DNA of 64,000 bases, from the sequence record OR352946.1. One strand, given 5' to 3'. Source of the stretch: Escherichia phage AV116. The notes under the pieces were generated by a model. It saw nothing but the letters and a program-made list of their open reading frames with translations, did not search any database and had not been told where the DNA came from. A program made the translations under genes and the position numbers. Below are positions 10,353 through 43,711 of the stretch, piece by piece; the first letter of the stretch is position 1, and the number at the start of each line of letters is the position of its first letter.

Positions 10353-10944
10353 CGTTATGTTCGATTGAGCTCGCTAATTCTCAACCCGTTCTCTTATGAA
10401 CTGCTGCATATTACTATGCAGACCAGACTATATCACAATCCCGGAGGGATTCTCCCCATTTCGAGTCGCTTGACCCTACGTCCGAAGACTAGTCGTTGAA
10501 CCTTGCTTTGCAATTGTCGCCGTGCCATCGTTTATATGTCGATGGTGATAAATCTTTCTTTTCACAATATGGACAATTCAATTGAATTCTATTTGGATTT
10601 AATTTGCATCTGTCATTATGTTTTAGATAAAACCCAGGACCTTTACCAATGTGACCGCAGAAATCACATGTGATTTCTTTTTGTGCAGGATGGGTTCCGT
10701 TCTTAACCATTTCTAATGTTTTTGCTGATGTTCTTCCATCAGAATCTTTAGGTATAGGCCCGTTAGCATCCATCCAAATTTTTCTATAATTCAATTGTGC
10801 ATCCTCTTAAAAGTATAATCATATTTATTTTATAATATACTAATTAAAGGTGCAAGCAAAACCTTGGCTGCTAGTTTTCCTATAAAGGACTTTCCAGCAA
10901 TTAAAGGAGTTTTCGATAAACGTTACCGTTTAAAGGCGCATTTT
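10353..10944 (-). mobile_element. group I intron in nrdB (approx. 592 nt; boundaries inferred)
   Basis: Interrupts the conserved NrdB sequence exactly where T4 nrdB carries its intron; contains an endonuclease-like ORF. Confidence 0.65.
10489..10794 (-). CDS. truncated intron-encoded endonuclease (I-TevIII-like, zinc-finger containing)
   Basis: 101-aa ORF inside the nrdB intron with CxxC...CxxC pairs (CDFCGH, CPYCEK). Confidence 0.55.
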   Translation of the reverse strand: MNYRKIWMDANGPIPKDSDGRTSAKTLEMVKNGTHPAQKEITCDFCGHIGKGPGFYLKHNDRCKLNPNRIQLNCPYCEKKDLSPSTYKRWHGDNCKARFND

Positions 10945-11675: not shown

Positions 11676-13940
11676 TTAAAGCTTACAAGCAGAACAATCT
11701 TCAGCTTTAGGTGTTTCTAATTCATAGTCATCTGTACCTGACCCATCACGAGTGTTATGATAGTAGAGGTTTTTTCCGCCAAAGTACCAGAAGTAAAGCA
11801 GATCGTCAAGCATTACTGACATTGGCACTTTACCTTTCTCAAATACTGCAGGGTCATAGTAAGTATTAGCAGAAGCAGATTGGCACACCCATTTCAACAT
11901 GATAGCAACTTGGGTCAAATAAGGTTTATTACCTTTCTTAGCAAGTTTCCACGCGTAGTCGTAAAGACTCATGTTATGTTCTATATTAGGAACAACCTGT
12001 CGGAAGTTGCCTTCTTTAGATTCTTTAATACTTACAGGTCCACGAGGTGGTTCTATACCATTTGTGCTATTTGAGACTTGACTGCTTGACTCACAAGGCA
12101 TGAGTGCAGACAACGTTGAGTTACGAATTCCATGTTCTTTGAGTTCAGCTCGAAGTTCTTCCCAGTCACAGACATAGTTCGGGGCTGCGATTTGGTCAAT
12201 CTTTTTATTGTACCAGTCGATAGGTAATTCGCCTCTAGACCATTTAGTGTCTGAATAATACTCACAAGGTCCTTTTTCTTTGGCGAGTTTGATTGATGCT
12301 TTGATAAGGCCATATTGCAATCTCTCGAACAATTCATGGGTCAAATCGTTAGCGTCTTCATATGAAGCAAAGTTAGAAGCTAACCATGCAGCATAGTTCG
12401 TCACACCAACACCGAGATTTCGACGCTTTTTAGCTTTTAAAGCTTCTGGAACCGGATAATCTTGATAGTCTAACAGGTTATCAAGTGCACGTACTTGTAC
12501 TTCAGCAAGTTCATTAATTTTATCTTGGTCTTGCCAATCAAATTTATCTAATACAAAAGCAGATAATGTGCATAAACCAATTTCAGCATCAGGACCATTC
12601 ACATCATTAGTTGGAATAGCGATTTCACAACATAAGTTACTCTGACGAATTGGAGCTTTTTCACGAATAAACGGAGTGTAGTTATTCGTGTTATCAACAA
12701 ACTGTGGATAAATTCGAGCAGTGCCAGAACGTTCAGTCATGAACAATTCAAAGAGTTCTAGTGCTTTGATTCTTTTCTTTCTGATTGTTGGGTCTTTTTC
12801 AGCTTTCTCATAAAGCTCACGGAATTTATCTTGATCTTCAAAGAACGAGTAGTATAGTTCACCTGACATTTCGTGAGGGCTAAATAAAGTAATATAATCA
12901 TTTTTACCAAGGCGTTCCATCATAAGGTCATTAATCTGAATTCCGTAGTCCATATGTCGAATACGGTTTTCATCCACGCCTTTGTTATTTTTCAGAACTA
13001 ATAGGTTCTCTACTTCTAAGTGCCACATCGGATAATACGCTGTAGCAGCACCACCACGAATACCACCTTGAGAACAAGATTTTACTGCAGTTTGGAAATG
13101 TTTCCAGAATGGAATAACACCTGTATGTCGAACTTCACCCGTACCGATCTTAGAACCTTCTGCACGAAGCATACCAACGTTGATACCGATACCAGCTCGT
13201 TTAGAAATATATTCAATAATTGATGCTGAAGTTTTGTTAATAGATTTTAACGAATCACCTGCTTCAATAACTACACAACTAGAGAACTGGCGAGTTGGAG
13301 TACGAGCACCTGCCATAATTGGGGTTGGCAATGAAACTTGATGAGTAGAAACGGCATCATAAAAACGAATAATATGTTTCAAACGGTCATGAGTTTCGTC
13401 TTGGTGTAAGGCCATGCCAATAGCCATGATAGCAAACTGGGGAGTTTCATAAATCTTCCCAGTTGTTTTATCTTTAACTAGATATTTTTCTTTAAGCTGC
13501 ATAGCACCAGCATAAGTCAGGTCAAAGTCTCGTTCATGTTTAATCTGTGAATCGAGATAAATGATTTCTTCTGCTGAATATTGAGACAACAGCTCAGGGT
13601 CATATTTGCCTTCATTAACACAGTAAGAAATATGGTCTATAAAAGCAGGCGGTTCAAACTGCCCATATACATCTTTACGAAGTGCAAACATTAGCCCTTT
13701 GGCGGCGACATACTGATAATCAGGTTCTTCGACAGAAATCAAGTTAGCTGCAACTTTAATACAAATCTTCTGAATATCTTTGGTGCTCATCCCGTCGACA
13801 AGATGGGTCTTAATTTCTTCATACAATTCGTATGGGTCGATTTGTGTTCCTTCACACTGCCAAGTTAATACTTGAATAATTTTCTGTGCATCAAAATTTT
13901 GGGATACACCTGAATTTTTCACTACTTTAAAATTATACAT
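11676..13940 (-). CDS. nrdA: ribonucleotide reductase large subunit
   Basis: 754 aa (same as T4 NrdA); ATP-cone N-terminus and class Ia RNR catalytic core with NLCCEI active-site region. Confidence 0.9.
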   Translation of the reverse strand: MYNFKVVKNSGVSQNFDAQKIIQVLTWQCEGTQIDPYELYEEIKTHLVDGMSTKDIQKICIKVAANLISVEEPDYQYVAAKGLMFALRKDVYGQFEPPAFIDHISYCVNEGKYDPELLSQYSAEEIIYLDSQIKHERDFDLTYAGAMQLKEKYLVKDKTTGKIYETPQFAIMAIGMALHQDETHDRLKHIIRFYDAVSTHQVSLPTPIMAGARTPTRQFSSCVVIEAGDSLKSINKTSASIIEYISKRAGIGINVGMLRAEGSKIGTGEVRHTGVIPFWKHFQTAVKSCSQGGIRGGAATAYYPMWHLEVENLLVLKNNKGVDENRIRHMDYGIQINDLMMERLGKNDYITLFSPHEMSGELYYSFFEDQDKFRELYEKAEKDPTIRKKRIKALELFELFMTERSGTARIYPQFVDNTNNYTPFIREKAPIRQSNLCCEIAIPTNDVNGPDAEIGLCTLSAFVLDKFDWQDQDKINELAEVQVRALDNLLDYQDYPVPEALKAKKRRNLGVGVTNYAAWLASNFASYEDANDLTHELFERLQYGLIKASIKLAKEKGPCEYYSDTKWSRGELPIDWYNKKIDQIAAPNYVCDWEELRAELKEHGIRNSTLSALMPCESSSQVSNSTNGIEPPRGPVSIKESKEGNFRQVVPNIEHNMSLYDYAWKLAKKGNKPYLTQVAIMLKWVCQSASANTYYDPAVFEKGKVPMSVMLDDLLYFWYFGGKNLYYHNTRDGSGTDDYELETPKAEDCSACKL

Positions 13941-14580
13941 AATAATTCCATGTTGGATAATTTGATGATTTTAGACGGCGTCTAACCGTTTGGGTGCTCA
14001 TAGATAAAATTATTGACGCTTCATTTAATGTATCATATATTACGTCGTTTATAATTACTTTCTTTGCAAATGGATTCTTAGCTCCTATCATAGCGTTAGA
14101 AATAGCTTGCTTAGTTGATTCTTTTAATGGGACTCCTTTAGAAATTTTTGTTTTAATTTTTATATTGTATTGTCCGCGTTTTTTACCTAATAAAGAATTT
14201 CGTATCTTTTCTTTAGTCTCTTCAGATTTAACATGTCCTAGTTTGGAACGAGATATTTTATCTTTTGTTTTTTGGTCTAATTTTCGCCCTTTAAGCAAAT
14301 CAACCATTTTTGCTCTAGCCCATCCAAATTCTTTATTATTTCTAGAACTCATTAAATTAACCGCGGTTGCTAAACCTAAATTGTTCGGATATATTTTTAA
14401 TAAAAGAAGATGAGCCAAATAATGTTCTGAATATGTTAATTTAACTAGATTGTATGACTCATTGGTGCCACCTAAACATTTTGGGATTATATGATGCCAT
14501 TCACCATCGATATCTTCAAAATTTCTTTCTTTATTTACTAAGTTTTTATATATTTTTAAATAATCCATAGTATAATCCAC
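13933..14580 (-). CDS. free-standing HNH homing endonuclease (Mob-like); likely start at internal Met near 14568
   Basis: HHIIPK...GG...N...EH HNH motif; paralogous to ORF 41091..41903; overlaps nrdA start by 8 nt. Confidence 0.7.
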   Translation of the reverse strand: MDYTMDYLKIYKNLVNKERNFEDIDGEWHHIIPKCLGGTNESYNLVKLTYSEHYLAHLLLLKIYPNNLGLATAVNLMSSRNNKEFGWARAKMVDLLKGRKLDQKTKDKISRSKLGHVKSEETKEKIRNSLLGKKRGQYNIKIKTKISKGVPLKESTKQAISNAMIGAKNPFAKKVIINDVIYDTLNEASIILSMSTQTVRRRLKSSNYPTWNYYV

Positions 14581-15211: not shown

Positions 15212-16227
15212 CATTATGTTCAGATAAGGTCGTTAATCTTATCCCGGAATTATATCCAGCTGCATGTCACCATGCAGAGCAGACTATATCTCCAACTTGT
15301 TAAAGCAAGTTGTCTATCGTTTCGAGTCACTTGACCCTACTCCCTAAAGGGATAGTCGTTAGGCATTTATGTAGAACCAATTCCACTTATCAGATTTTAC
15401 ACGGTAAGTAACTAATCCTGATGAAATTTCAAAATGTCTAGCCGCATCGGCTGCACATTCAAAAATAATCCCATCGCATGAAATCTTTTTGATGTTAGCT
15501 GGCTTTTTGCCTTTCATCTTTTCAGATAGTTTAGTTTTAGTTTTTTCTGAATGTTTGTGATTAAAGAACGGGTTATTTTCACCTGAACGTTTTCGGCACT
15601 TTCCACAAGTATCGGCCGAAGATGGTATGCGAACACCGCATTTACAAAACTTGTGGTTTTCTGGATTCCATCGGCCATTTTTACTTCCGTGTTTACCATA
15701 AAGAGCTTTCCGACCATCAGGACCAAGCTTAAGCATCTTAGCTTTAACAGTTTCAGCTCGTTTCTTAGCAATTTCTTCTTTTAATGGATGATTTGAAAGC
15801 ACATCGCCAAAAGACGCATCAGCAATATTATATCCATTAATTTTAGAATTTAGCTCTTTAATCCAAAAATTTTCTCGTTCAATAATCAAATCTTTCTCAT
15901 ATGGAATTTCTTCCAGTATAGAGCATTCAAAAACATTACCATGTTTATTAAAAGACCTTTGAAATTTTATAGAAGAGTGAACACCGTTTTCAAGGTCTTT
16001 AAAATGTCTCTTCCATCTTTTCTCAAAATCTTTAGCACTTCCAACATACACTTTACCGTTTAAAGTGTTTTTAATCTGATAAATTCCGCTTTTCATAAAC
16101 ACCTCTTTTTATATAGAAGTATTTATTAAAGGGTAGTCCTACAATTTAGCACGGGATTGTCTACTAGAGAGGTCCCCCGTTTAGATAGATTACAAGTATA
16201 AGTCACCTTATACCTAGGCCTAAATTA
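15212..16227 (-). mobile_element. td group I intron (1016 nt)
   Basis: 5' end TAATTTAGGCCTAGGTATAAGGTGACTTATACTTGTAATCTATCTAAACGGGG... matches the T4 td intron as recalled; length 1016 nt equals T4 td intron. Confidence 0.85.
15359..16102 (-). CDS. intron-encoded GIY-YIG homing endonuclease I-TevI
   Basis: 247 aa; SGIYQIKNTLNGKVYVGSA GIY-YIG motif, zinc finger CKCG...CGKC; matches recalled I-TevI (245 aa). Confidence 0.85.
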   Translation of the reverse strand: MFMKSGIYQIKNTLNGKVYVGSAKDFEKRWKRHFKDLENGVHSSIKFQRSFNKHGNVFECSILEEIPYEKDLIIERENFWIKELNSKINGYNIADASFGDVLSNHPLKEEIAKKRAETVKAKMLKLGPDGRKALYGKHGSKNGRWNPENHKFCKCGVRIPSSADTCGKCRKRSGENNPFFNHKHSEKTKTKLSEKMKGKKPANIKKISCDGIIFECAADAARHFEISSGLVTYRVKSDKWNWFYINA

Positions 16228-18180: not shown

Positions 18181-19080
18181 TTATAGACCAGCTAACAGGT
18201 CATCGAGGTCACCATCGTCAGAAGACGAGGAACTCATGAAGTCATCTTCAGTTTTTGCAGAACCAAAGGCTTCCATGTCTTTATCAAAATCGTCAAGGTC
18301 AGAAGCAACTTTATCTGCAACAGAAGCTGCTGCGGCTGCTGCACCACCAAGAGCGGCAGTACCAAGAACTTGATTAAATTTAGTATTCAATTCTTCAAAC
18401 GATTTGAACTTATCTTTAGAAGTCATTTCAGAAAGGTCGACCATTTGTTCGAACAATTCTTTCTGGAAAGATTCATCATCAATGTTTGGAATCGCAGATT
18501 GATTCAGGAATTTAGATTCGTCGTAGTTACTGAAACCAGAAACCTGTTTAACTTTCAGCACAAAGTTAGCACCTTCCCACGGGCAAGTTACATCAACAGG
18601 AGTTTCACCCATTTCAGTATCGACTGCAATCATTGCATTGATTTTGTCCCAAATCTTTTTACCGAAACGATATTTGAATACTTTACCTTCATTATCTGGA
18701 GCTTGAGGGTCTTTAACAACCAGAATATTAGCCCAATAAGAAGTTTTACGTTTCAGTTGAGAATATTCAGTTTTGTTGGTATTGTACAGGTCATTTTTAC
18801 TAATGTACTGACATACAGGACAAGAGTCATAATCGCCGTGTGTAGATGAACAGGTTTCAATATACCATTTACCATTTTTCTTGAACCCGTGGTTAACAAG
18901 AATTGTAAACGGAAGTGCGTCATCTGTTTTTGCCGGCAGGAAACGAATTACCGCTTGACCATTACCGGATGCATCGAGTTTCAGCTTCCATTCACCTTTA
19001 TCTTCTGAAGAGAAACCTTTGTTACCATTCAGTTTAGCCATCTGAGCTGCGAGGTCTGCGGTACTTTTACGTTTAAACAT
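18181..19080 (-). CDS. 32: single-stranded DNA-binding protein gp32
   Basis: 299 aa; [36 protein letters not shown]... and acidic C-terminal tail match T4-type gp32. Confidence 0.9.
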
Positions 19081-19160: not shown

Positions 19161-19168
19161 TATTTATA
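19161..19168 (-). promoter_or_regulatory. late promoter TATAAATA upstream of gene 32
   Basis: Exact TATAAATA on the minus strand about 80 nt upstream of the gene 32 ATG. Confidence 0.55.
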
Positions 19169-19197: not shown

Positions 19198-19851
19198 TTA
19201 ATACTTACATGATTTGATTGTTTCTATGAACAATTTCTTAGCAGCATTTCTATCGATTTGAAGTATTTTTCGATATGCCTTTAATTTGGTAGAATAATTT
19301 TGCCAGACTAAGTTATCGGTGAGTTCGTCGTGCTTATCTATAATATTCAAAAACGAGTCCAACAATAAGAAAGTCTCAAATGAAATTATATTGCTTTGTA
19401 GCAATTTGAATATGTAGCTCGACTGAACGTTGCTATTATAATCAAATATCTCTTGAAGCGCACTAACTTCAACTTTCTTACTGAAATAGTAGATGTTACG
19501 TACGTCTTCAGCAAACGTCTCCTTGGCTTGTTTGAGACGTCCAATATATTCCCTATAGAAAACTAATGCATCAGCGTCTGATATCTCACCAATCCATGCG
19601 TCTTGGTTAGCAACTAAGTTGCTTATGAATATCAAGGTGAGTTCCTTCAATTTATATTTCTCTGCTAGTTTTTCAAAGAAATATTTATCTCGGCGTTTTT
19701 GATACGCATTATCCGAAACACGCATGCACCAGTTATATTTGATTACGTCATACCGACCACCAAAGTGGTTTTTGCACATCAAGTATAGTTTATATACTGA
19801 TTTTCCATTAATATAACGTTCTCCGTCAGGAGGCATGCGTATTTTAATCAT
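19198..19851 (-). CDS. 59: helicase loader gp59
   Basis: 217 aa, same as T4 gp59; long blocks identical to recalled T4 sequence (KYNWCMRVSD, IFISNLVANQDAWIG). Confidence 0.85.
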   Translation of the reverse strand: MIKIRMPPDGERYINGKSVYKLYLMCKNHFGGRYDVIKYNWCMRVSDNAYQKRRDKYFFEKLAEKYKLKELTLIFISNLVANQDAWIGEISDADALVFYREYIGRLKQAKETFAEDVRNIYYFSKKVEVSALQEIFDYNSNVQSSYIFKLLQSNIISFETFLLLDSFLNIIDKHDELTDNLVWQNYSTKLKAYRKILQIDRNAAKKLFIETIKSCKY

Positions 19852-20528
19852 AGTTCCATCCAGGCCATTTTGAAGATTTAAGTCTATATGTAACTAAAGA
19901 CGCAGAAATATTAAAAACATTTGAAACTTCTTTACACGAGGCGTATTTTATACCATCAATAATTATAGGTTTTTGTTTTTTAATAGTTCTTTCTTTAGAA
20001 TGCGGCTTTGAATTTGCTATTCTAAGAGCTTCTTTGGTTGAATCAGGCATCGGCTTATTCGTTTTTCGCCCTTTTCGGACTTTACTCAAGGCCAATTTGT
20101 GAGCTTCAGATAGTTTCTTACCCTTATTAGGTGACGGTATTTTTCTTTCTAGTCTTGTTTTAGATACTTTAGCCTTAGTCTCTTCAGATCTAGGTTTACC
20201 TAATTTAGAAAGTGAAATAGGACCTTTTAGCTTCATCACTTTGTTTTTTACCAGGACCACCTTTACCACCGGGAACTAAGTTATAAGTATCATCTCGCAA
20301 AACAAAATCTTCATTAACCAATTCTGCTTCTTTTTTATAGGCGTCCTTGTCATTATCATATTCATAAAGAATTTCGGTATAAAAATTTTTTAGTCCATAT
20401 TTAGCTTTGGCCGCTAATATAGCGCGGCCTGATCCAATATACCAATCTTTCTCTTTATGTTTTTTGTGTACGCCTATATAAATTTTACCATTTATTTTAT
20501 TGGTAGTTTTATACACAACGTATTTCAT
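19844..20528 (-). pseudogene. GIY-YIG homing endonuclease (seg-like) split into two overlapping frames by a frameshift in an A6 run
   Basis: N-terminal ORF (107 aa) has VVYKTTNKINGKIYIGV GIY-YIG motif; C-terminal ORF (141 aa) carries the basic DNA-binding tail; frames overlap at 20205..20269. Confidence 0.6.
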
Positions 20529-20863
20529 AATAAGAAATCTAACGTATTAGTTTTTTCACCACGAGCAACTGATGGGCGAAGCATGTTTTCGTCAATTGCT
20601 TCGCTTGTAATTTTTTCAACAATTCCTGTAGGAATAAATTTAGCAAATTGTGTTTCTGGAATAGAATTTTCTTCCAAGAAAGCAGTTGTTGCTTCTAAAT
20701 AAGACATACCAAATTGTTCAACCATGGATTCGATAATGAATCCGTTTTCTTGTCGGTCAAGCAATTTAGCGATATCATCTTTATCGTGTTTTACTGCTAA
20801 TTCTTGTTCAGATAAACCGGCCTCATCAACCGGTTTAATATCACTTAGTGAAAACTGTGTCAT
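20525..20863 (-). CDS. 33: late transcription co-activator gp33
   Basis: 112 aa, same as T4 gp33; position between 59 and dsbA. Confidence 0.7.
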   Translation of the reverse strand: MTQFSLSDIKPVDEAGLSEQELAVKHDKDDIAKLLDRQENGFIIESMVEQFGMSYLEATTAFLEENSIPETQFAKFIPTGIVEKITSEAIDENMLRPSVARGEKTNTLDFLL

Positions 20864-21110
20864 AAAGCTCGACTACCTCTTCGTTTTCAGCTTCAAATTG
20901 GTCACGAGCGTCTTTATGATAAAGAGCTAACAAACGATTAAACATTTTTCCATCGACGCCAAGCTCTTCTTTAGCACGAGTACGAATGTCTTTAATCAGT
21001 TCATTATAACCAGAAATTTTAAGTTTGTTATCGGAAGCTTCTTTGACTAGTTTAGCCAGTTCTTCACCATGCACATCTTGATTAAATTCAACTGCTTCTT
21101 TCTTAGCCAT
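20841..21110 (-). CDS. dsbA: dsDNA-binding protein DsbA (late transcription enhancer); start taken at MAKKEAV
   Basis: MAKKEAVEFNQDVHGEELAKLVKEASDNKLKISGYNELIKD... matches recalled T4 DsbA (89 aa). Confidence 0.75.
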   Translation of the reverse strand: MAKKEAVEFNQDVHGEELAKLVKEASDNKLKISGYNELIKDIRTRAKEELGVDGKMFNRLLALYHKDARDQFEAENEEVVELYDTVFTK

Positions 21111-21117
21111 GTTTACC

Positions 21118-22035
21118 TCAGAATTCATTAATTACACTTGTTAATTTAGAAAGACCAGATTTTACAAAGTATGAATAAATCTTGCCTTTAGGTTGTGGTT
21201 TATATGAGTTATAATACTCTATAATGGTTGAAGCAATATTATCAGGGATATAATCAAAATCAATGAGAACCAAATTTTCTTGATACCGTTTATATTCTTC
21301 TGCACTTAATAATACTTCAGCTTGAGAACGGTCATTAGCAATTGCTTCAATAATCGTTGTTTTCATGCTCGGAGTTCGTTCACCATCAACTCTGGTAAAC
21401 CAGAAGTCACCACGAACTCGAACAGATGCAACGCCGTCTTTACGGTCACCTTTAAGAATTTTAGTCATGCAATCAATTTCAGCAGAACCGTTCTTAATTT
21501 TAACCCATTTTTTCTGTGGTGGCGACCACTGTTTAACGTTAGGATATTTGTGTAATTGTGTAAAGTCACCATCTGATGCAACAATACATACCTTATGACC
21601 GGCTAATGACAAATATTTAGTTAATACACCGATATGGTCATCCGCTTCATACTTGTCAATATCCATTACAACGTATGGCATGTATTTCTTAATCTCATCA
21701 ACAACTTGATGGAGTGCAGTAAAATATCCTTCCCAATCCCACTTTGAAGCTTCACGATCGGTTTTACGATTTTTCTTGTAATAGTAAGCAAAATCACGTC
21801 GCCAATAACCTGAAGTAGCATTATCCATACACAATACAAATTTTGTATAGCCTTGCTTACGGAACATCACTACGTTTTTACGAATTGAATTCAAGATTAC
21901 ATGGCGAACCATCGGAACAGTAATTTTATCGCCGTCTTCAAAGTTGTTTAATGCGGCTGCCAATGCAATGTTACTAAAGTCGGCAAGTGCAATACCTTCT
22001 TTGTAATCTTCATCCAACATCATTTCTAAATCCAT
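21118..22035 (-). CDS. rnh: RNase H (5'-3' exonuclease, FEN family)
   Basis: 305 aa, same as T4 RNase H; MDLEMMLDEDYKEG... and C-terminal ...KIYSYFVKSGLSKLTSVINEF match. Confidence 0.9.
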   Translation of the reverse strand: MDLEMMLDEDYKEGIALADFSNIALAAALNNFEDGDKITVPMVRHVILNSIRKNVVMFRKQGYTKFVLCMDNATSGYWRRDFAYYYKKNRKTDREASKWDWEGYFTALHQVVDEIKKYMPYVVMDIDKYEADDHIGVLTKYLSLAGHKVCIVASDGDFTQLHKYPNVKQWSPPQKKWVKIKNGSAEIDCMTKILKGDRKDGVASVRVRGDFWFTRVDGERTPSMKTTIIEAIANDRSQAEVLLSAEEYKRYQENLVLIDFDYIPDNIASTIIEYYNSYKPQPKGKIYSYFVKSGLSKLTSVINEF

Positions 22036-27883: not shown

Positions 27884-30800
27884 ATGGCTACTTTAAAACA
27901 AATACAATTTAAAAGAAGCAAAACCGCAGGTGCACGTCCTGCTGCTTCAGTATTAGCCGAAGGTGAATTGGCTATAAACTTAAAAGATAGAACACTTTTT
28001 ACTAAAGATGATTCAGGAAATATCATTGATTTAAGCATTTCTGCTGGTGGTAATATCAGTGGAAACGTGACTATTGATGGAACTTTACGCGTCAATGGAC
28101 CAATAAACAATTTTGGAAATTTTTCCACAAGTGGCCAGATTACCGCTGGTAGTAGTATTTCAGCTCAAGTTTTTAGAGCATTGCAAGGTTCGTTTTATTC
28201 AAGAGCTTCAACCGGTGAAACAGCAAATGCCCATTTATGGTTTGAAAATGCCGATGGCACTGAACGAGGCGTTATATATGCTCGTCCTCAAACTACAACT
28301 GATGGTGAAATACGTCTTAGAGTTAGACAAGGAACAGGAAGCACCGTTAATAGCGAATTCTATTTCCGTTCTATAAACGGCGGTGAATTTCAAGCCAACC
28401 GTATTTTAGCATCAGATTCGTTAGTAACTAAACGCATTGCAGCTGATACAGTTATCCACGGTGGCAAAGCCTTTGGTGTATATGATACAGATTCATTAGT
28501 TAATTATGTATATCCAGGCACCGGCGAAACGAATGGTGTAAACTATCTTCGTAAAGTGCGAGCTAAATCCGGTGGTACAATGTATCATGAAATTGTTACT
28601 GCACAAACAGACCAGGCTGATGAAGTTTCTTGGTGGACTGGTAATACACCATCATTTAAATTATATGGTATTCGTAATGACGGCCGAATGATCGTCCGCA
28701 ATAGCATAGCCATCGGGACCGTGACTGCAGGATACCCGTCAAGCGACTATGGTAATGGTGCCGCTTTAGGATTCGGTGTTTATTTAGCTCTAGGCGATAA
28801 CGGGACGGGGCTATCATACAAAAAAACCGGTGTTTATGATTTAGTTGGTTCAGGGAATTCTGTCGCATCTATTACTCCTGATAGTTTCCGTAGTACCCGT
28901 AAAGCGATTTTTGGTCGTTCCGAGGACCAAGGTACAACATGGATTATGCCTGGAACCAACGCCGCATTTTTATCAGTTCAAACACAGGCTGATGAAAATA
29001 CTGCTGGAGACGGCCAGACGCATATTGGATATAATTCTGGCGGGAAAATGTCCCACTATTTCCGCGGTAAAGGCCAAACCAACATTAATACACAAGAAGG
29101 TATGGAAGTTAACCCTGGTATTTTGAAATTGGTAACTGGTTCTAATAACGTACAGTTTTATGCCGACGGAACAGTATCTTCAATACAAAGAATTAAATTT
29201 GATAACGGATTAGTTCTTACTGGTGCTAGACCCGACGGTATTCAACTTGACGCTCCTACAACAACAGATGGCACTAAAACTATACTGTGGGCCGGTGGTA
29301 CTCGCGAAGGTCAGAATAAAAATTATGTATCTATCAAAGCATGGGGTAATGCCTTTAACGCATCTGGTGATCGTTCCCGTGAAACAGTTTTTGAGGTAGG
29401 TGATGGCCAAGGTTATTATTTTTATGCGCAGCGTGTAGCTCCTGCAACAGGTTCGACTATCGGGTCAATTCAACTCCGTATTGGAGGCGCTTTATTAACT
29501 TCTGGTGGTATTACATCGTCTGGTTCTATTGTTACAGAATCTAGCCTGGTTGCAAATAACGGAATGTCTGTAAACGGCCAGGCTAAATTTGGCGGAACAG
29601 CAAATGCATTGAGAATTTGGAACGCCGAATATGGCGCTATTTTCCGTCGTTCAGAAACAGCATTGCACATTATTCCTACTCTTAAAGACCAAGGAGAAAA
29701 TGGTGAAATAGGTAATCTTCGTCCATTGAGCATCTCACTTCATAACGGTATGGTTCAAATGCGTCATTCTGTCACGTTAGGCGATGATGGTGCCGGCGGT
29801 AATATGATTACTGTAGACAACGATAACAAACTTGTTGTTGTTACTAGTAATAGTCGAATTTCTCCTAATTTCAGAATGCAGATAGGTCGGTCGGCATACA
29901 TTGATGCAGAATGTACTGATAGAGTACGGCCGGCTGGAGCGGGTTCTTTTGCTTCCCAAAATAATGAAAATGTACGTGCGCCGTTCTATATGAATATTGA
30001 TAGAACTGATATTAGTACATATGTTCCTATTTTTAAACAACGTTATGTTCAAGGAAATAGCTGTTATTCTTTAGGAACTCTAATTAATGGTGGTAACTTT
30101 AGAGTTCATTATCATGAAGGTGGTGATAATGATTCGACGGGCCCTTTAATTAAGAACTTCGCGTGGGAATTCAATAGAACAGGCGATTTTATTTCCCCTG
30201 GTAAATTGGGAGCTGGTACAGTTCGTATTGGTACTGATGGTAATATCACCGGTGGTTCTGGCAACTTTGCTAACTTGAATACCACAATAAATAACCTTAA
30301 GACGGATATTGTCTCAAGTTATCCTATTGGTGCTCCGATTCCTTGGCCTACTGATACACCTCCTGAAGGTTATGCCATCATGGAAGGTCAAACATTTGAT
30401 AAGTCTGCATACCCAAAATTGGCTATGGCTTACCCATCCGGCGTAATTCCTGATATGCGTGGTCAAACTATCAAGGGTAAACCATCTGGGCGTGCTGTAT
30501 TAAGTACAGAAGCAGATGGTGTTAAGTCACATAGCCATAGTGCAAGTGCATCAAGCACAGATTTGGGTACTAAAAACACATCAAGTTTTGATTATGGTAC
30601 TAAAACCTCTTCAAGCTTTGATTATGGTACGAAGACCAGTAATACCACTGGTGCTCATACGCATAGTTTGAGCGGTTCCACAAACACCACCGGTGCGCAT
30701 ACCCACTCAATGCAATTTGTTTCAGGTGGAACCAGCGGTACTCCAGGAAGTGGATCACCTGACTATTCTAAATACAATGCCAACACTTCTTCTGCGGGCG

Positions 30801-41059: not shown

Positions 41060-41092
41060 ATTAAAATTAAAATGAAGCTCCCGAAGGAGCTT
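41060..41092 (-). terminator. intrinsic terminator downstream of HNH endonuclease gene
   Basis: AAGCTCCTTCGGGAGCTT hairpin followed by U-rich tract on the minus strand. Confidence 0.55.
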
Positions 41093-41888
41093 AGGACATC
41101 CAACACATTTTATAACCTTTGCAGGTTCTGTTAGGATTATTTAATGCTTTCAATATATTAGAAGACCCTATATCTAAATACTCCCTTAATTCATAAAGAT
41201 AGTTAAAATCAATAGTTTCACCTGTTTTTACACTTGTGATTCTTATAGGCCTTCTTTCATATTTAGATTTATACAACTCTCTAGTCTTAGCTTTAGTTTC
41301 TTCTGACCTAGGAGTGTATGGTTTAAATCCTTTTGTTTTAAATGTTTCCATTCTTGATTTAGTTATTTTATCCTGGTGTTCTTTTGTTTTTACAGGTGCT
41401 TTTCGCCCATTCTCCCAAGATAACTTGTTGGCCTGTATTATTTTATCTATTGCTTCTTGCGTATGAGTTTTACCATAAAATGGATTTAATTCGCCTATAC
41501 GTTGTGAAGCAATATGTGACATTAATTCTCTTGTTGCTTTAGTATGTTTTTTACCTTTAAATGGATTGCCATTTTTAGCAATCCATTCTTTCATAAATCT
41601 AGAGTGCTCTTTAGAGAATTCTTGTTTAAGCCAATCATAATCTCTAGAATTTCTAGCTCCCATGTAAAAAGCTCTAATAGCCATAAGCATAGAACGGTTC
41701 TTATGAATTTTATAAAGCAATAAATGGGCGATAAAATGCTCTCTAGGGGTCATTTTAACTAGATTTGATTTAGCATTACTCCCACCCATAGATTTAGGCA
41801 AAATATGGTGAGTTTCAGTATAATTAGGAATAGTGCTGCGGTTTTTAGCCGCAGCGATAAGTTTATCATAAATTTTACGATAATTCAT
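41091..41888 (-). CDS. HNH homing endonuclease (MobA-like); start taken at MNYRKIY, TAATG-coupled to gene 39 stop
   Basis: THHILPKSMGG...N...REHFIAH HNH motif; paralogue of ORF 13933..14568. Confidence 0.7.
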   Translation of the reverse strand: MNYRKIYDKLIAAAKNRSTIPNYTETHHILPKSMGGSNAKSNLVKMTPREHFIAHLLLYKIHKNRSMLMAIRAFYMGARNSRDYDWLKQEFSKEHSRFMKEWIAKNGNPFKGKKHTKATRELMSHIASQRIGELNPFYGKTHTQEAIDKIIQANKLSWENGRKAPVKTKEHQDKITKSRMETFKTKGFKPYTPRSEETKAKTRELYKSKYERRPIRITSVKTGETIDFNYLYELREYLDIGSSNILKALNNPNRTCKGYKMCWMS

Positions 41889-43711
41889 TATCCTAGCATC
41901 CAATCTTTACGGAGTTCAGGGTCGTTACCCATGAGCATTTCAAATAGTTCTTTCCAATTTTCAGGAAGTTTAACTACGTCGTACACAGGGTTTTGAATCA
42001 TTTCTTTATATTCATCCCGCTGAAGTGAGCCCAATCCCTTGATGTATCGAATACTATGCTTAGGCAGTGTATCTTTAACTTCTTCATACTCAGCTACAGT
42101 ATAAAACCATTTTTGAGTTTTGCCAATTTGTGCAATAATTACAGGCGTTTTAACAAAGCGAATACGTCCTTGTTCAAACAATTCAGGCCAATTACTAAAG
42201 AAAGCAAGCAAAGCCGGATAAATACTTCCAAGGCCGTCATGATCGGCATCGGTCATAATTGCAATATTACGGTAGTTCGTATTCTCTGCCTTTTCACCAA
42301 GAATAAGACCCGTGATAGCACAGATATCAAAGAGCTCTTTGTTCTTCATCATATCGGCATATGACATACCCCAGCTATTCATCACCTTACCACGTAATGG
42401 GAATCCGCCGTGTAGTTCACGGTCACGAACATCAATGAGATAACCAATTGCCGAATCACCTTCTGTTAAAAACAATGTCGTATCTGCATCTTTACCACAT
42501 TGGTTAGCTTTAATATGCTTATGAACCTTAGCTTTAGTTGCCTTTTTAGCTGCTTTAGTTTCTGCAGCCTTTTCTGCTGCCAATTTACGAGCTAATGCGG
42601 CTTCAATTATAGGCATTAAAACTGCGTCAGAATTCAAAATATTTTTTGCCAATTTTTTTGTATCTAATTTAATATGCGTCCGAATTTCGCCATAAGGACT
42701 TGTTAAACGCTCTTTGGTTTGGGAATCAAAACGAAGGTTCTTCATTCCACGAACGAACATTAAGAGAGTGAGACATTCCTTGATTCGCGCTTTAGTCACG
42801 TCGATTTTATATTTGCGTTTAATAGCCGGAATTAATTCTTCGCTAATGTCGTCCATCACACATTCAATGTGATGACCACCGTTTTTGGTATGGATGTTAT
42901 TCACATAAGTTAAATGACGGAAGCCATCTGGTGACCGTCCAATGGCAATAGAGCATCCGTCTTGTTCTTGAATGATGGTCTCTTCATCAAATTGTTTAGC
43001 AAACTTCTTAAAGTTACCTTGAATCTTTTTGCCATTAAATTTAAATTCAATACCAGGATAAACGACCGCCAATGTTTGGAGCCGGTCTATAGTAATATCT
43101 TGGTATATTTTTTCAAATTGATTCATTTCAAAATGTGAGAAATCAGGAATAAACTCGACCTTAGTACCGTTGTTTTTAGACGGCTTAGATTTCCAAGAAA
43201 TATTATCAGCGTTATTAGAACAATTAACGGTCAATTCATTTTTACCATCTGAAGTAGTGCCAACAAAAGAGACAGAAAAAATATTTGTTAATGAAGAACC
43301 GACACCGTTTTGTCCACCCGTAACACGTTCTTTGTCGTCACCAAAGTTGCCACCGGCTTTTGTACGTGTCCACGCCGCAACTGGTCCTGGAATTTCTTCT
43401 CCTTCAGGAGTAATAACTGTTTCTTGAGGAATACCTCGACCATTATCTTCAACAGTCACTTTATTAGAATTTAAATCAATACTAACGGAAATTTTATTAG
43501 CATATTTGAAATTGGTTCGAATAGCTTCGTCTACTGAGTTGTCAATAATTTCATCAATTAATTTGAGAACACCTGCAACATATTTAACCTTTTTAAATTC
43601 ACCGAATAGGAAACGTTCTTGTTCTTCATTGGCAACACTTCCAATATACATGCCAGGACGCTTCAAACAATGCTCTTTATCAGATAGCATTTCAATTTTA
43701 TTATCAATCAT
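41888..43711 (-). CDS. 39: DNA topoisomerase II large subunit gp39, unsplit (includes the region encoded by T4 gene 60)
   Basis: GHKL ATPase motifs (LIDEIIDNSVDE, DNGRGIP) plus C-terminal TOPRIM region IMTDADHDGLGSIYPALLAFFSNWPELFEQGRIRFVKTP matching recalled T4 gp60. Confidence 0.85.
   Translation of the reverse strand: MIDNKIEMLSDKEHCLKRPGMYIGSVANEEQERFLFGEFKKVKYVAGVLKLIDEIIDNSVDEAIRTNFKYANKISVSIDLNSNKVTVEDNGRGIPQETVITPEGEEIPGPVAAWTRTKAGGNFGDDKERVTGGQNGVGSSLTNIFSVSFVGTTSDGKNELTVNCSNNADNISWKSKPSKNNGTKVEFIPDFSHFEMNQFEKIYQDITIDRLQTLAVVYPGIEFKFNGKKIQGNFKKFAKQFDEETIIQEQDGCSIAIGRSPDGFRHLTYVNNIHTKNGGHHIECVMDDISEELIPAIKRKYKIDVTKARIKECLTLLMFVRGMKNLRFDSQTKERLTSPYGEIRTHIKLDTKKLAKNILNSDAVLMPIIEAALARKLAAEKAAETKAAKKATKAKVHKHIKANQCGKDADTTLFLTEGDSAIGYLIDVRDRELHGGFPLRGKVMNSWGMSYADMMKNKELFDICAITGLILGEKAENTNYRNIAIMTDADHDGLGSIYPALLAFFSNWPELFEQGRIRFVKTPVIIAQIGKTQKWFYTVAEYEEVKDTLPKHSIRYIKGLGSLQRDEYKEMIQNPVYDVVKLPENWKELFEMLMGNDPELRKDWMLG

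Follow-up and report, generated by a model that had tools for sequence, protein, structure and literature searches.

Results

The window, by which we mean the whole stretch of 64,000 nucleotides from Escherichia phage AV116 (OR352946.1) that was analysed, comes from a T-even-type coliphage whose closest genomes place it in Mosigvirus (RB69-like); a 24-kb query found its best genome match in Escherichia phage AV118 (99.1% over 91% of the query). AV116 was isolated from pig waste in Denmark. The region of interest reads on the minus strand through rnh (21118..22035), dsbA (20841..21128) and gene 33 (20525..20863), which encodes the late-transcription accessory protein, into a Seg-like, free-standing GIY-YIG homing endonuclease gene (19844..20528; 685 bp), and continues with gene 59 (19198..19851), encoding the helicase loader, and gene 32 (18181..19080). 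The endonuclease gene overlaps both of its neighbours: at its upstream end its ATG shares bases with the TGA of gene 33 (ATGA), and at its downstream end its stop codon overlaps the ATG of gene 59, which lies 8 nt inside the end of the seg gene.

In AV116 the endonuclease gene is frameshifted and appears as two ORFs. ORF A (20205..20528, minus strand, 107 aa) carries the GIY-YIG catalytic domain and comprises native residues 1-103 plus an out-of-frame tail, YFTF, before its stop codon. ORF B (19844..20269, minus strand, 141 aa) carries NUMOD3 repeats and an I-TevI-type helix-turn-helix DNA-binding domain; it lies in the +1 frame relative to ORF A, which it overlaps at 20205..20269. The original prediction, made from the letters and their reading frames, had described this pair with the same lengths, the same difference in frame and the same overlap, all of which are confirmed here. 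Intact orthologues measure 684 bp and encode 227 aa. Candidate start codons for ORF B are GTG at 20269, GTG at 20260 and ATG at 20236, and by eye no Shine-Dalgarno sequence is evident before any of them, so ORF B is probably poorly translated. Read from the second GTG, ORF B corresponds to a 138-aa 'hypothetical protein' CDS (WPK35497.1) that includes the out-of-frame leader; this CDS belongs to AV116 itself (OR352946), and its match to the window is therefore not independent confirmation. The exact products of ORF A and ORF B are both absent from the gene-position collection.

ORF A matches Pfam SegE_GIY-YIG with 25.0 bits, a score equal to the cut-off, and PHROG 314 'homing endonuclease' with an E-value of 9e-37; ORF B matches Pfam I-TevI_DNA-bd (E 3.6e-12) and NUMOD3. 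These domain matches show that the split is real and that the two ORFs are not a chance pair, and taken with the neighbouring genes they uphold the earlier assignment of a Seg-like GIY-YIG endonuclease gene between genes 33 and 59. The C-terminus also matches the I-TevI DNA-binding domain (PDB 1i3j), both by sequence and by fold. A sequence search of the PDB with the N-terminal domain alone returned only chance matches, so that a fold search was needed to reveal the relationship of this domain to the I-TevI catalytic domain.

The model used for this was built by AlphaFold for an intact orthologue (P0001) of 98% identity, rather than for the window's own sequence, with 56 homologues in the alignment. 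It has a mean pLDDT of 90.4, with a dip at residues 91-100; it begins with an alpha/beta domain (residues 1 to about 90), continues with a series of helices, the NUMOD3 region, and closes with a small domain at the C-terminus. Its best fold matches in the PDB are the I-TevI DNA-binding domain (1i3j), the I-TevI catalytic domain (1mk0; probability 1.00, TM 0.65 on the target) and I-HmuI. Residues Y6, Y17, G19, E67 and N83, which occupy the GIY, YIG, Glu and Asn motif positions, are invariant in the 56 homologues. In the segment that corresponds to the conserved catalytic R27 (motif B) of I-TevI, where the alignment to I-TevI is unreliable, no Arg is invariant, and H21, D28 and K43 are nearly invariant. 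From the sequence matches and the model, the intact 227-aa enzyme is predicted to be composed of an N-terminal GIY-YIG nuclease, NUMOD3 repeats and a C-terminal I-TevI-type helix-turn-helix. The frameshift lies where the first NUMOD3 helix begins, directly behind the nuclease domain. AV116 thus has both the nuclease and the DNA-binding module, but in different frames, whereas the ten orthologues that were translated have them fused.

Where exactly does the frame change? Base-level alignments and a repair test place the lesion at 20220..20221 (minus strand), where the window has CC and each intact orthologue aligned at base level has one C. The extra C hits codon 103, converting the TCT or GCT of intact orthologues into TCCT (TAGAC into TAGGAC on the plus strand), and among the four intact genes aligned it accounts for the sole length difference, with GGTCTATT or GGGCTATT in the relatives and GGTCCTATT in the window. 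Its context is not a homopolymer run. Deleting the extra C yields a 684-bp gene with 100% nucleotide identity, that is zero differences, to the gene of sister phage AV109. Codon 103 (20220..20222, minus strand) is itself polymorphic among intact orthologues, encoding either Ser (TCT) or Ala (GCT).

The original prediction had located the lesion in a run of six As, which forms codons K94-K95. This run lies at 20244..20249 (minus strand), one base away from the coordinates first given for it (20245..20250), and it has the same length in intact orthologues. The accompanying arithmetic was right, in that removal of one A gives one continuous ORF of about 227 codons; a one-base deletion anywhere in the ORF overlap likewise gives 227 codons. 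We nevertheless reject the A6 run as the lesion, as all four intact orthologues that were aligned base by base have six As and as the repair at this position, while producing a single ORF, leaves 8 residues within 95-103 wrong relative to the orthologues. Because the run is unchanged in intact orthologues, five As would be abnormal, and the proposal that reads with five As would reveal an intact gene was aimed at the wrong position. What stands is a single-base frameshift that splits the catalytic domain from the DNA-binding tail; its site is the extra C at 20220/20221 instead of the A6 run.

In all 28 database records that contain the whole gene, the matched span has one base fewer than in the window (1000 versus 1001 bp, or 672 versus 673). 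Ten of them were translated and each gave a single 227-aa protein; with the other 18 judged from the one-base-shorter span, the gene appears to be intact at 227 aa in all 28. The frameshifted allele is a singleton among 29 known copies. Mosigvirus orthologues annotated as 'Seg-like homing endonuclease' (WPK33662.1 of AV109, AIM50821.1 of Shf125875 and YP_010093289.1 of phi25-307) share with the AV116 gene its locus, its orientation and the overlaps with both neighbours, at 94.7-99.9% nucleotide identity; they are intact at 227 aa, and the window copy differs from them in having the extra C. Between divergent Mosigvirus pairs dN/dS is 0.06-0.10 in both halves of the gene, showing that the full-length protein is the selected form and is under purifying selection.

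More distant homologues (50-57% identity), again intact, occupy the 33/59 junction of Dhakavirus AnYang (L017, 1486..2172) and Winklervirus CHI14 (L016, 1486..2094). Behind gene 59, where T4 has segG, AnYang possesses another endonuclease gene. Neither a 30-mer of the mutant allele nor a pattern covering both alleles had a match in IMG/VR or the JGI metagenomes; with neither allele present, these collections are uninformative on allele frequency. In the literature we found no paper characterising this seg lineage, and located no biochemical or homing data on it.

The distribution of the gene is that of a mobile cassette at a fixed intergenic site: it is free-standing and polymorphic for presence and absence, with 139 of the 167 matching records containing the flanks only and 28 carrying the gene. 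In the two empty sites that were inspected, those of phages a20 and F2, the gene 33 stop codon overlaps the gene 59 start (ATGA). Relative to these seg-less genomes, the insertion (19848..20529, minus strand) amounts to 677 bp here and 676 bp in intact copies, and it is bounded by a 5-nt direct repeat, TATGA (20525..20529 and 19848..19852). The first bases of seg (ATGAAATACG, 20519..20528) resemble the start of gene 59 (ATGATTAAAATACG, 19838..19851; both minus strand), and this resemblance and the TATGA repeat may be a trace of cassette insertion.

A search for a late promoter (TATAAATA) that could serve seg found none nearer than the gene 32 promoter at 19161..19168, and sigma-70-like matches around seg are at background level only. 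The seg gene thus fits the promoterless cassette type to which several T4 seg and mob genes belong, segG being listed among those that depend on an upstream transcript (PMC2988022). At the start of gene 59 we found no RNA structure beyond that of shuffled sequences.

Among known systems, I-TevI of the T4 td intron (1mk0/1ln0 and 1i3j) provides the best sequence and fold match for the seg modules. It shares with seg the order of an N-terminal GIY-YIG nuclease, an extended linker and a C-terminal helix-turn-helix, as well as the motif residues Y, Y, G, E and N. In contrast to intron-encoded I-TevI, seg is free-standing, has a linker of NUMOD3 repeats and lacks a zinc finger, and the two are about 31% identical in the alignment. 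T4 SegG belongs to the same enzyme family and sits one gene away in the same neighbourhood, as its gene is inserted between genes 59 and 32, a position given both by a review of T4 (PMC2988022) and by the T4 record, and its target is gene 32. Orthology with T4 SegG was considered and rejected: BLASTP gives E = 3.6, and the site is 33/59 and not 59/32. The 59/32 spacer of the window is empty, with no segG.

In 2005, Sandegren et al. reportedly described SegH of the T4 group as replacing mobC at nrdG/nrdD. SegH is likewise a member of the GIY-YIG Seg family, and its genomic site (PMC2988022 Table 1) differs from the one described here. In the record of Shf125875 the gene is noted as similar to RB3 SegH, and in that of CHI14 the homologue goes by the label segD; because the genomic site differs, these labels reflect best-hit naming and not orthology. 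With respect to the lesion, the closest parallels are gp115-gp116 of ICP1 (HNH and AP2), whose modules are separated by a small mutation in one isolate with relatives intact (PMC10448857), and the deletion remnant of I-TevIII in T4, in which a module was lost through a small mutation (PMC2988022). The AV116 case differs from these in endonuclease family and host phage, and in that its allele comes from a single isolate and is without further decay.

Discussion

We consider it probable that the split gene in AV116 represents a genuine and very recent loss-of-function frameshift of a free-standing GIY-YIG homing endonuclease gene. That the mutation would be very recent follows from the rest of the gene, which is base-for-base identical to intact sister copies. 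From family membership we infer that the intact enzyme cleaves DNA and homes: its C-terminal helix-turn-helix would tether the nuclease to the target and, by analogy with the T4 Seg enzymes, the protein would during mixed infection cleave genomes lacking seg close to the 33/59 junction, after which the cassette would be copied in by recombinational repair. In AV116 the extra C in codon 103 shifts the frame such that translation ends after the nuclease domain and four foreign residues, and the DNA-binding module is left in another frame, one without an evident ribosome-binding site. The expected outcome is loss of site-specific cleavage, that is, a newly dead homing endonuclease gene. I-TevI offers a precedent for this expectation, as its cleavage needs both domains in concert and its DNA-binding domain alone acts only as a repressor (PMC2988022). 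Frameshifted homing endonuclease genes in which the nuclease is split from the DNA-binding domain are a recognised signature in phages (PMC10448857), and degeneration is a step in the life cycle of homing endonuclease genes according to a T4 review (PMC2988022). The AV116 case is in this respect ordinary, an expected degeneration step that follows a pattern already described.

The change may also reach beyond the endonuclease itself. Ribosomes that translate ORF A now terminate 354 nt short of the gene 59 ATG, whereas in the intact gene termination overlaps that ATG, so translational coupling into gene 59 may be weakened or, possibly, lost. Such a loss might be costly; a natural allele that is fixed would then be less expected, which in that sense counts against a genuine mutation. 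Strong purifying selection elsewhere similarly argues that loss of the gene is not simply neutral in nature. Moreover, AV116 shows no second degenerative mutation in the gene, which is how a consensus error would also look.

Is the extra C then present in the phage? The main rival to a genuine mutation is an artefact of sequencing or assembly, with a phage that really has TCT and an intact gene, and the singleton status of the allele as well as the 100% identity of the remainder of the gene to intact copies are in line with it. We regard this as unlikely. The change from C to CC sits in mixed sequence and is not a change in homopolymer length, and on the Illumina MiSeq 2x250 platform consensus indels are rare. 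The AV phages were sequenced on this platform, although the genomes were assembled de novo with CLC and no read-level check is reported (PMC10844046). A comparison of indels between the window and AV118, covering about 62 kb, also speaks against an artefact: no other window gene reads as frame-broken relative to AV118, coding indels either have lengths divisible by three or are compensated a few bases away (with the exception of two uncompensated-looking gaps near 28013, at the divergent end of a tail-fibre alignment), and every other single-base indel lies between genes, the pattern that real variation under selection should give. Only two differences break a frame, and both are in homing endonuclease genes. 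The second of these genes, a free-standing HNH and NUMOD3 homing endonuclease gene that adjoins gene 39 (topoisomerase II large subunit; 41091..41903, minus strand), is intact here with 270 aa, whereas the copy of sister isolate AV118 is split by an analogous frameshift, A6 to A7 near 41547, right after the nuclease domain (GKKH becomes GKKTY and a stop). Among 27 records this HNH gene deviates in length in 2: AV118 is confirmed as broken, and ECO111 5-P is one base shorter as judged from match length only. Random errors would mostly land in the ~95% of sequence that consists of ordinary genes and would not strike endonuclease genes twice, and this, combined with the sequence context and the platform, leads us to prefer a genuine mutation. 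Three options had been put forward originally, namely a decaying homing endonuclease, a slippage-prone site and a homopolymer sequencing error; the first of these fits best, and slippage at the A6 run and a homopolymer error both fit poorly, given that the change is outside a homopolymer and the reads come from an Illumina MiSeq.

That the broken allele is not dead, either by virtue of slip-made full-length enzyme (RS to GP) or because the DNA-binding module alone shields the 33/59 site, seems to us highly improbable. In the former case, to which we give only a slim chance, the frameshift would be real but leaky: a pause at the rare AGG would let tRNA-Lys on AAA slip by +1 (AAA-A) and so supply some full-length enzyme, so that activity is tuned down and not abolished. 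P-site slippage next to codons that are hungry or rare is well established, for instance at Ty1 CUU-AGG-C and at E. coli AGG-AGG sites. Directly before the insertion stands the heptad A-AAA-AGG, whose AAA-AGG part (Lys101, Arg102; 20223..20228, minus strand) ends 2 nt short of the inserted base. Of the Arg codons, AGG is the one used least in the window genes (1.7 per 1000 codons), and in silico the +1 slip product would differ from wild type at 2 residues only, RS102-103 being replaced by GP. A search of the window for tRNA genes that might decode AGG found none. However, AAA-AGG is not specific to the broken allele, as each of the four aligned intact genes has it too, and there a slip would do harm. 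AAA-AGG pairs number 1 in the window genes against 1.4 expected, at which size a test for avoidance is uninformative. A slippery P-site and a slow codon, as in programmed +1 frameshifting of the prfB/Ty1 type, are found here, but conservation and a stimulatory element are not: by eye there is no Shine-Dalgarno-like stimulator upstream, the RNA fold of 20170..20290 has a z of -0.29 relative to shuffles, and the frameshift is conserved in no relative, the 28 records being one base shorter and the ten translated ones a single ORF. Less credible still, and in our view barely plausible, is a functional two-gene arrangement, with the nuclease and the DNA-binding domain synthesised separately and the latter working on its own, for example as a repressor or by protecting the 33/59 site, in the manner of the I-TevI domain at its operator. 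The split does fall exactly at the domain boundary, where the pLDDT dip at residues 91-100 lies, and the DNA-binding domain of I-TevI works independently of the nuclease as an autorepressor (PMC2988022). Against this arrangement, the GTG and ATG candidates of ORF B have no Shine-Dalgarno sequence evident upstream by eye, two ORFs are unique to one genome, and selection elsewhere keeps a single ORF. Were slippage to take place after all, the single-base insertion would amount to an expression 'dimmer' for a toxic selfish nuclease.

With recent loss of function as the preferred reading, the two short 'hypothetical' ORFs are best annotated as one frameshifted Seg-like pseudogene with the frameshift at codon 103, and beyond annotation the significance is slight. 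AV116, with its broken copy, and AV109, AV114 and AV118, with the same gene intact, do however constitute a natural near-isogenic pair, which could be used to probe Seg homing at the 33/59 junction and the effect of its loss on gene 59 expression.

Other genes of mobile elements occur elsewhere in the window, all on the minus strand. A 101-aa ORF at 10489..10794, between two nrdB coding segments and where AV118 has an annotated homing endonuclease, is possibly an I-TevIII-like remnant. A 215-aa HNH endonuclease is encoded downstream of nrdA (13933..14580), and an apparently intact orthologue of I-TevI lies between two thymidylate synthase (td) segments (15359..16102).
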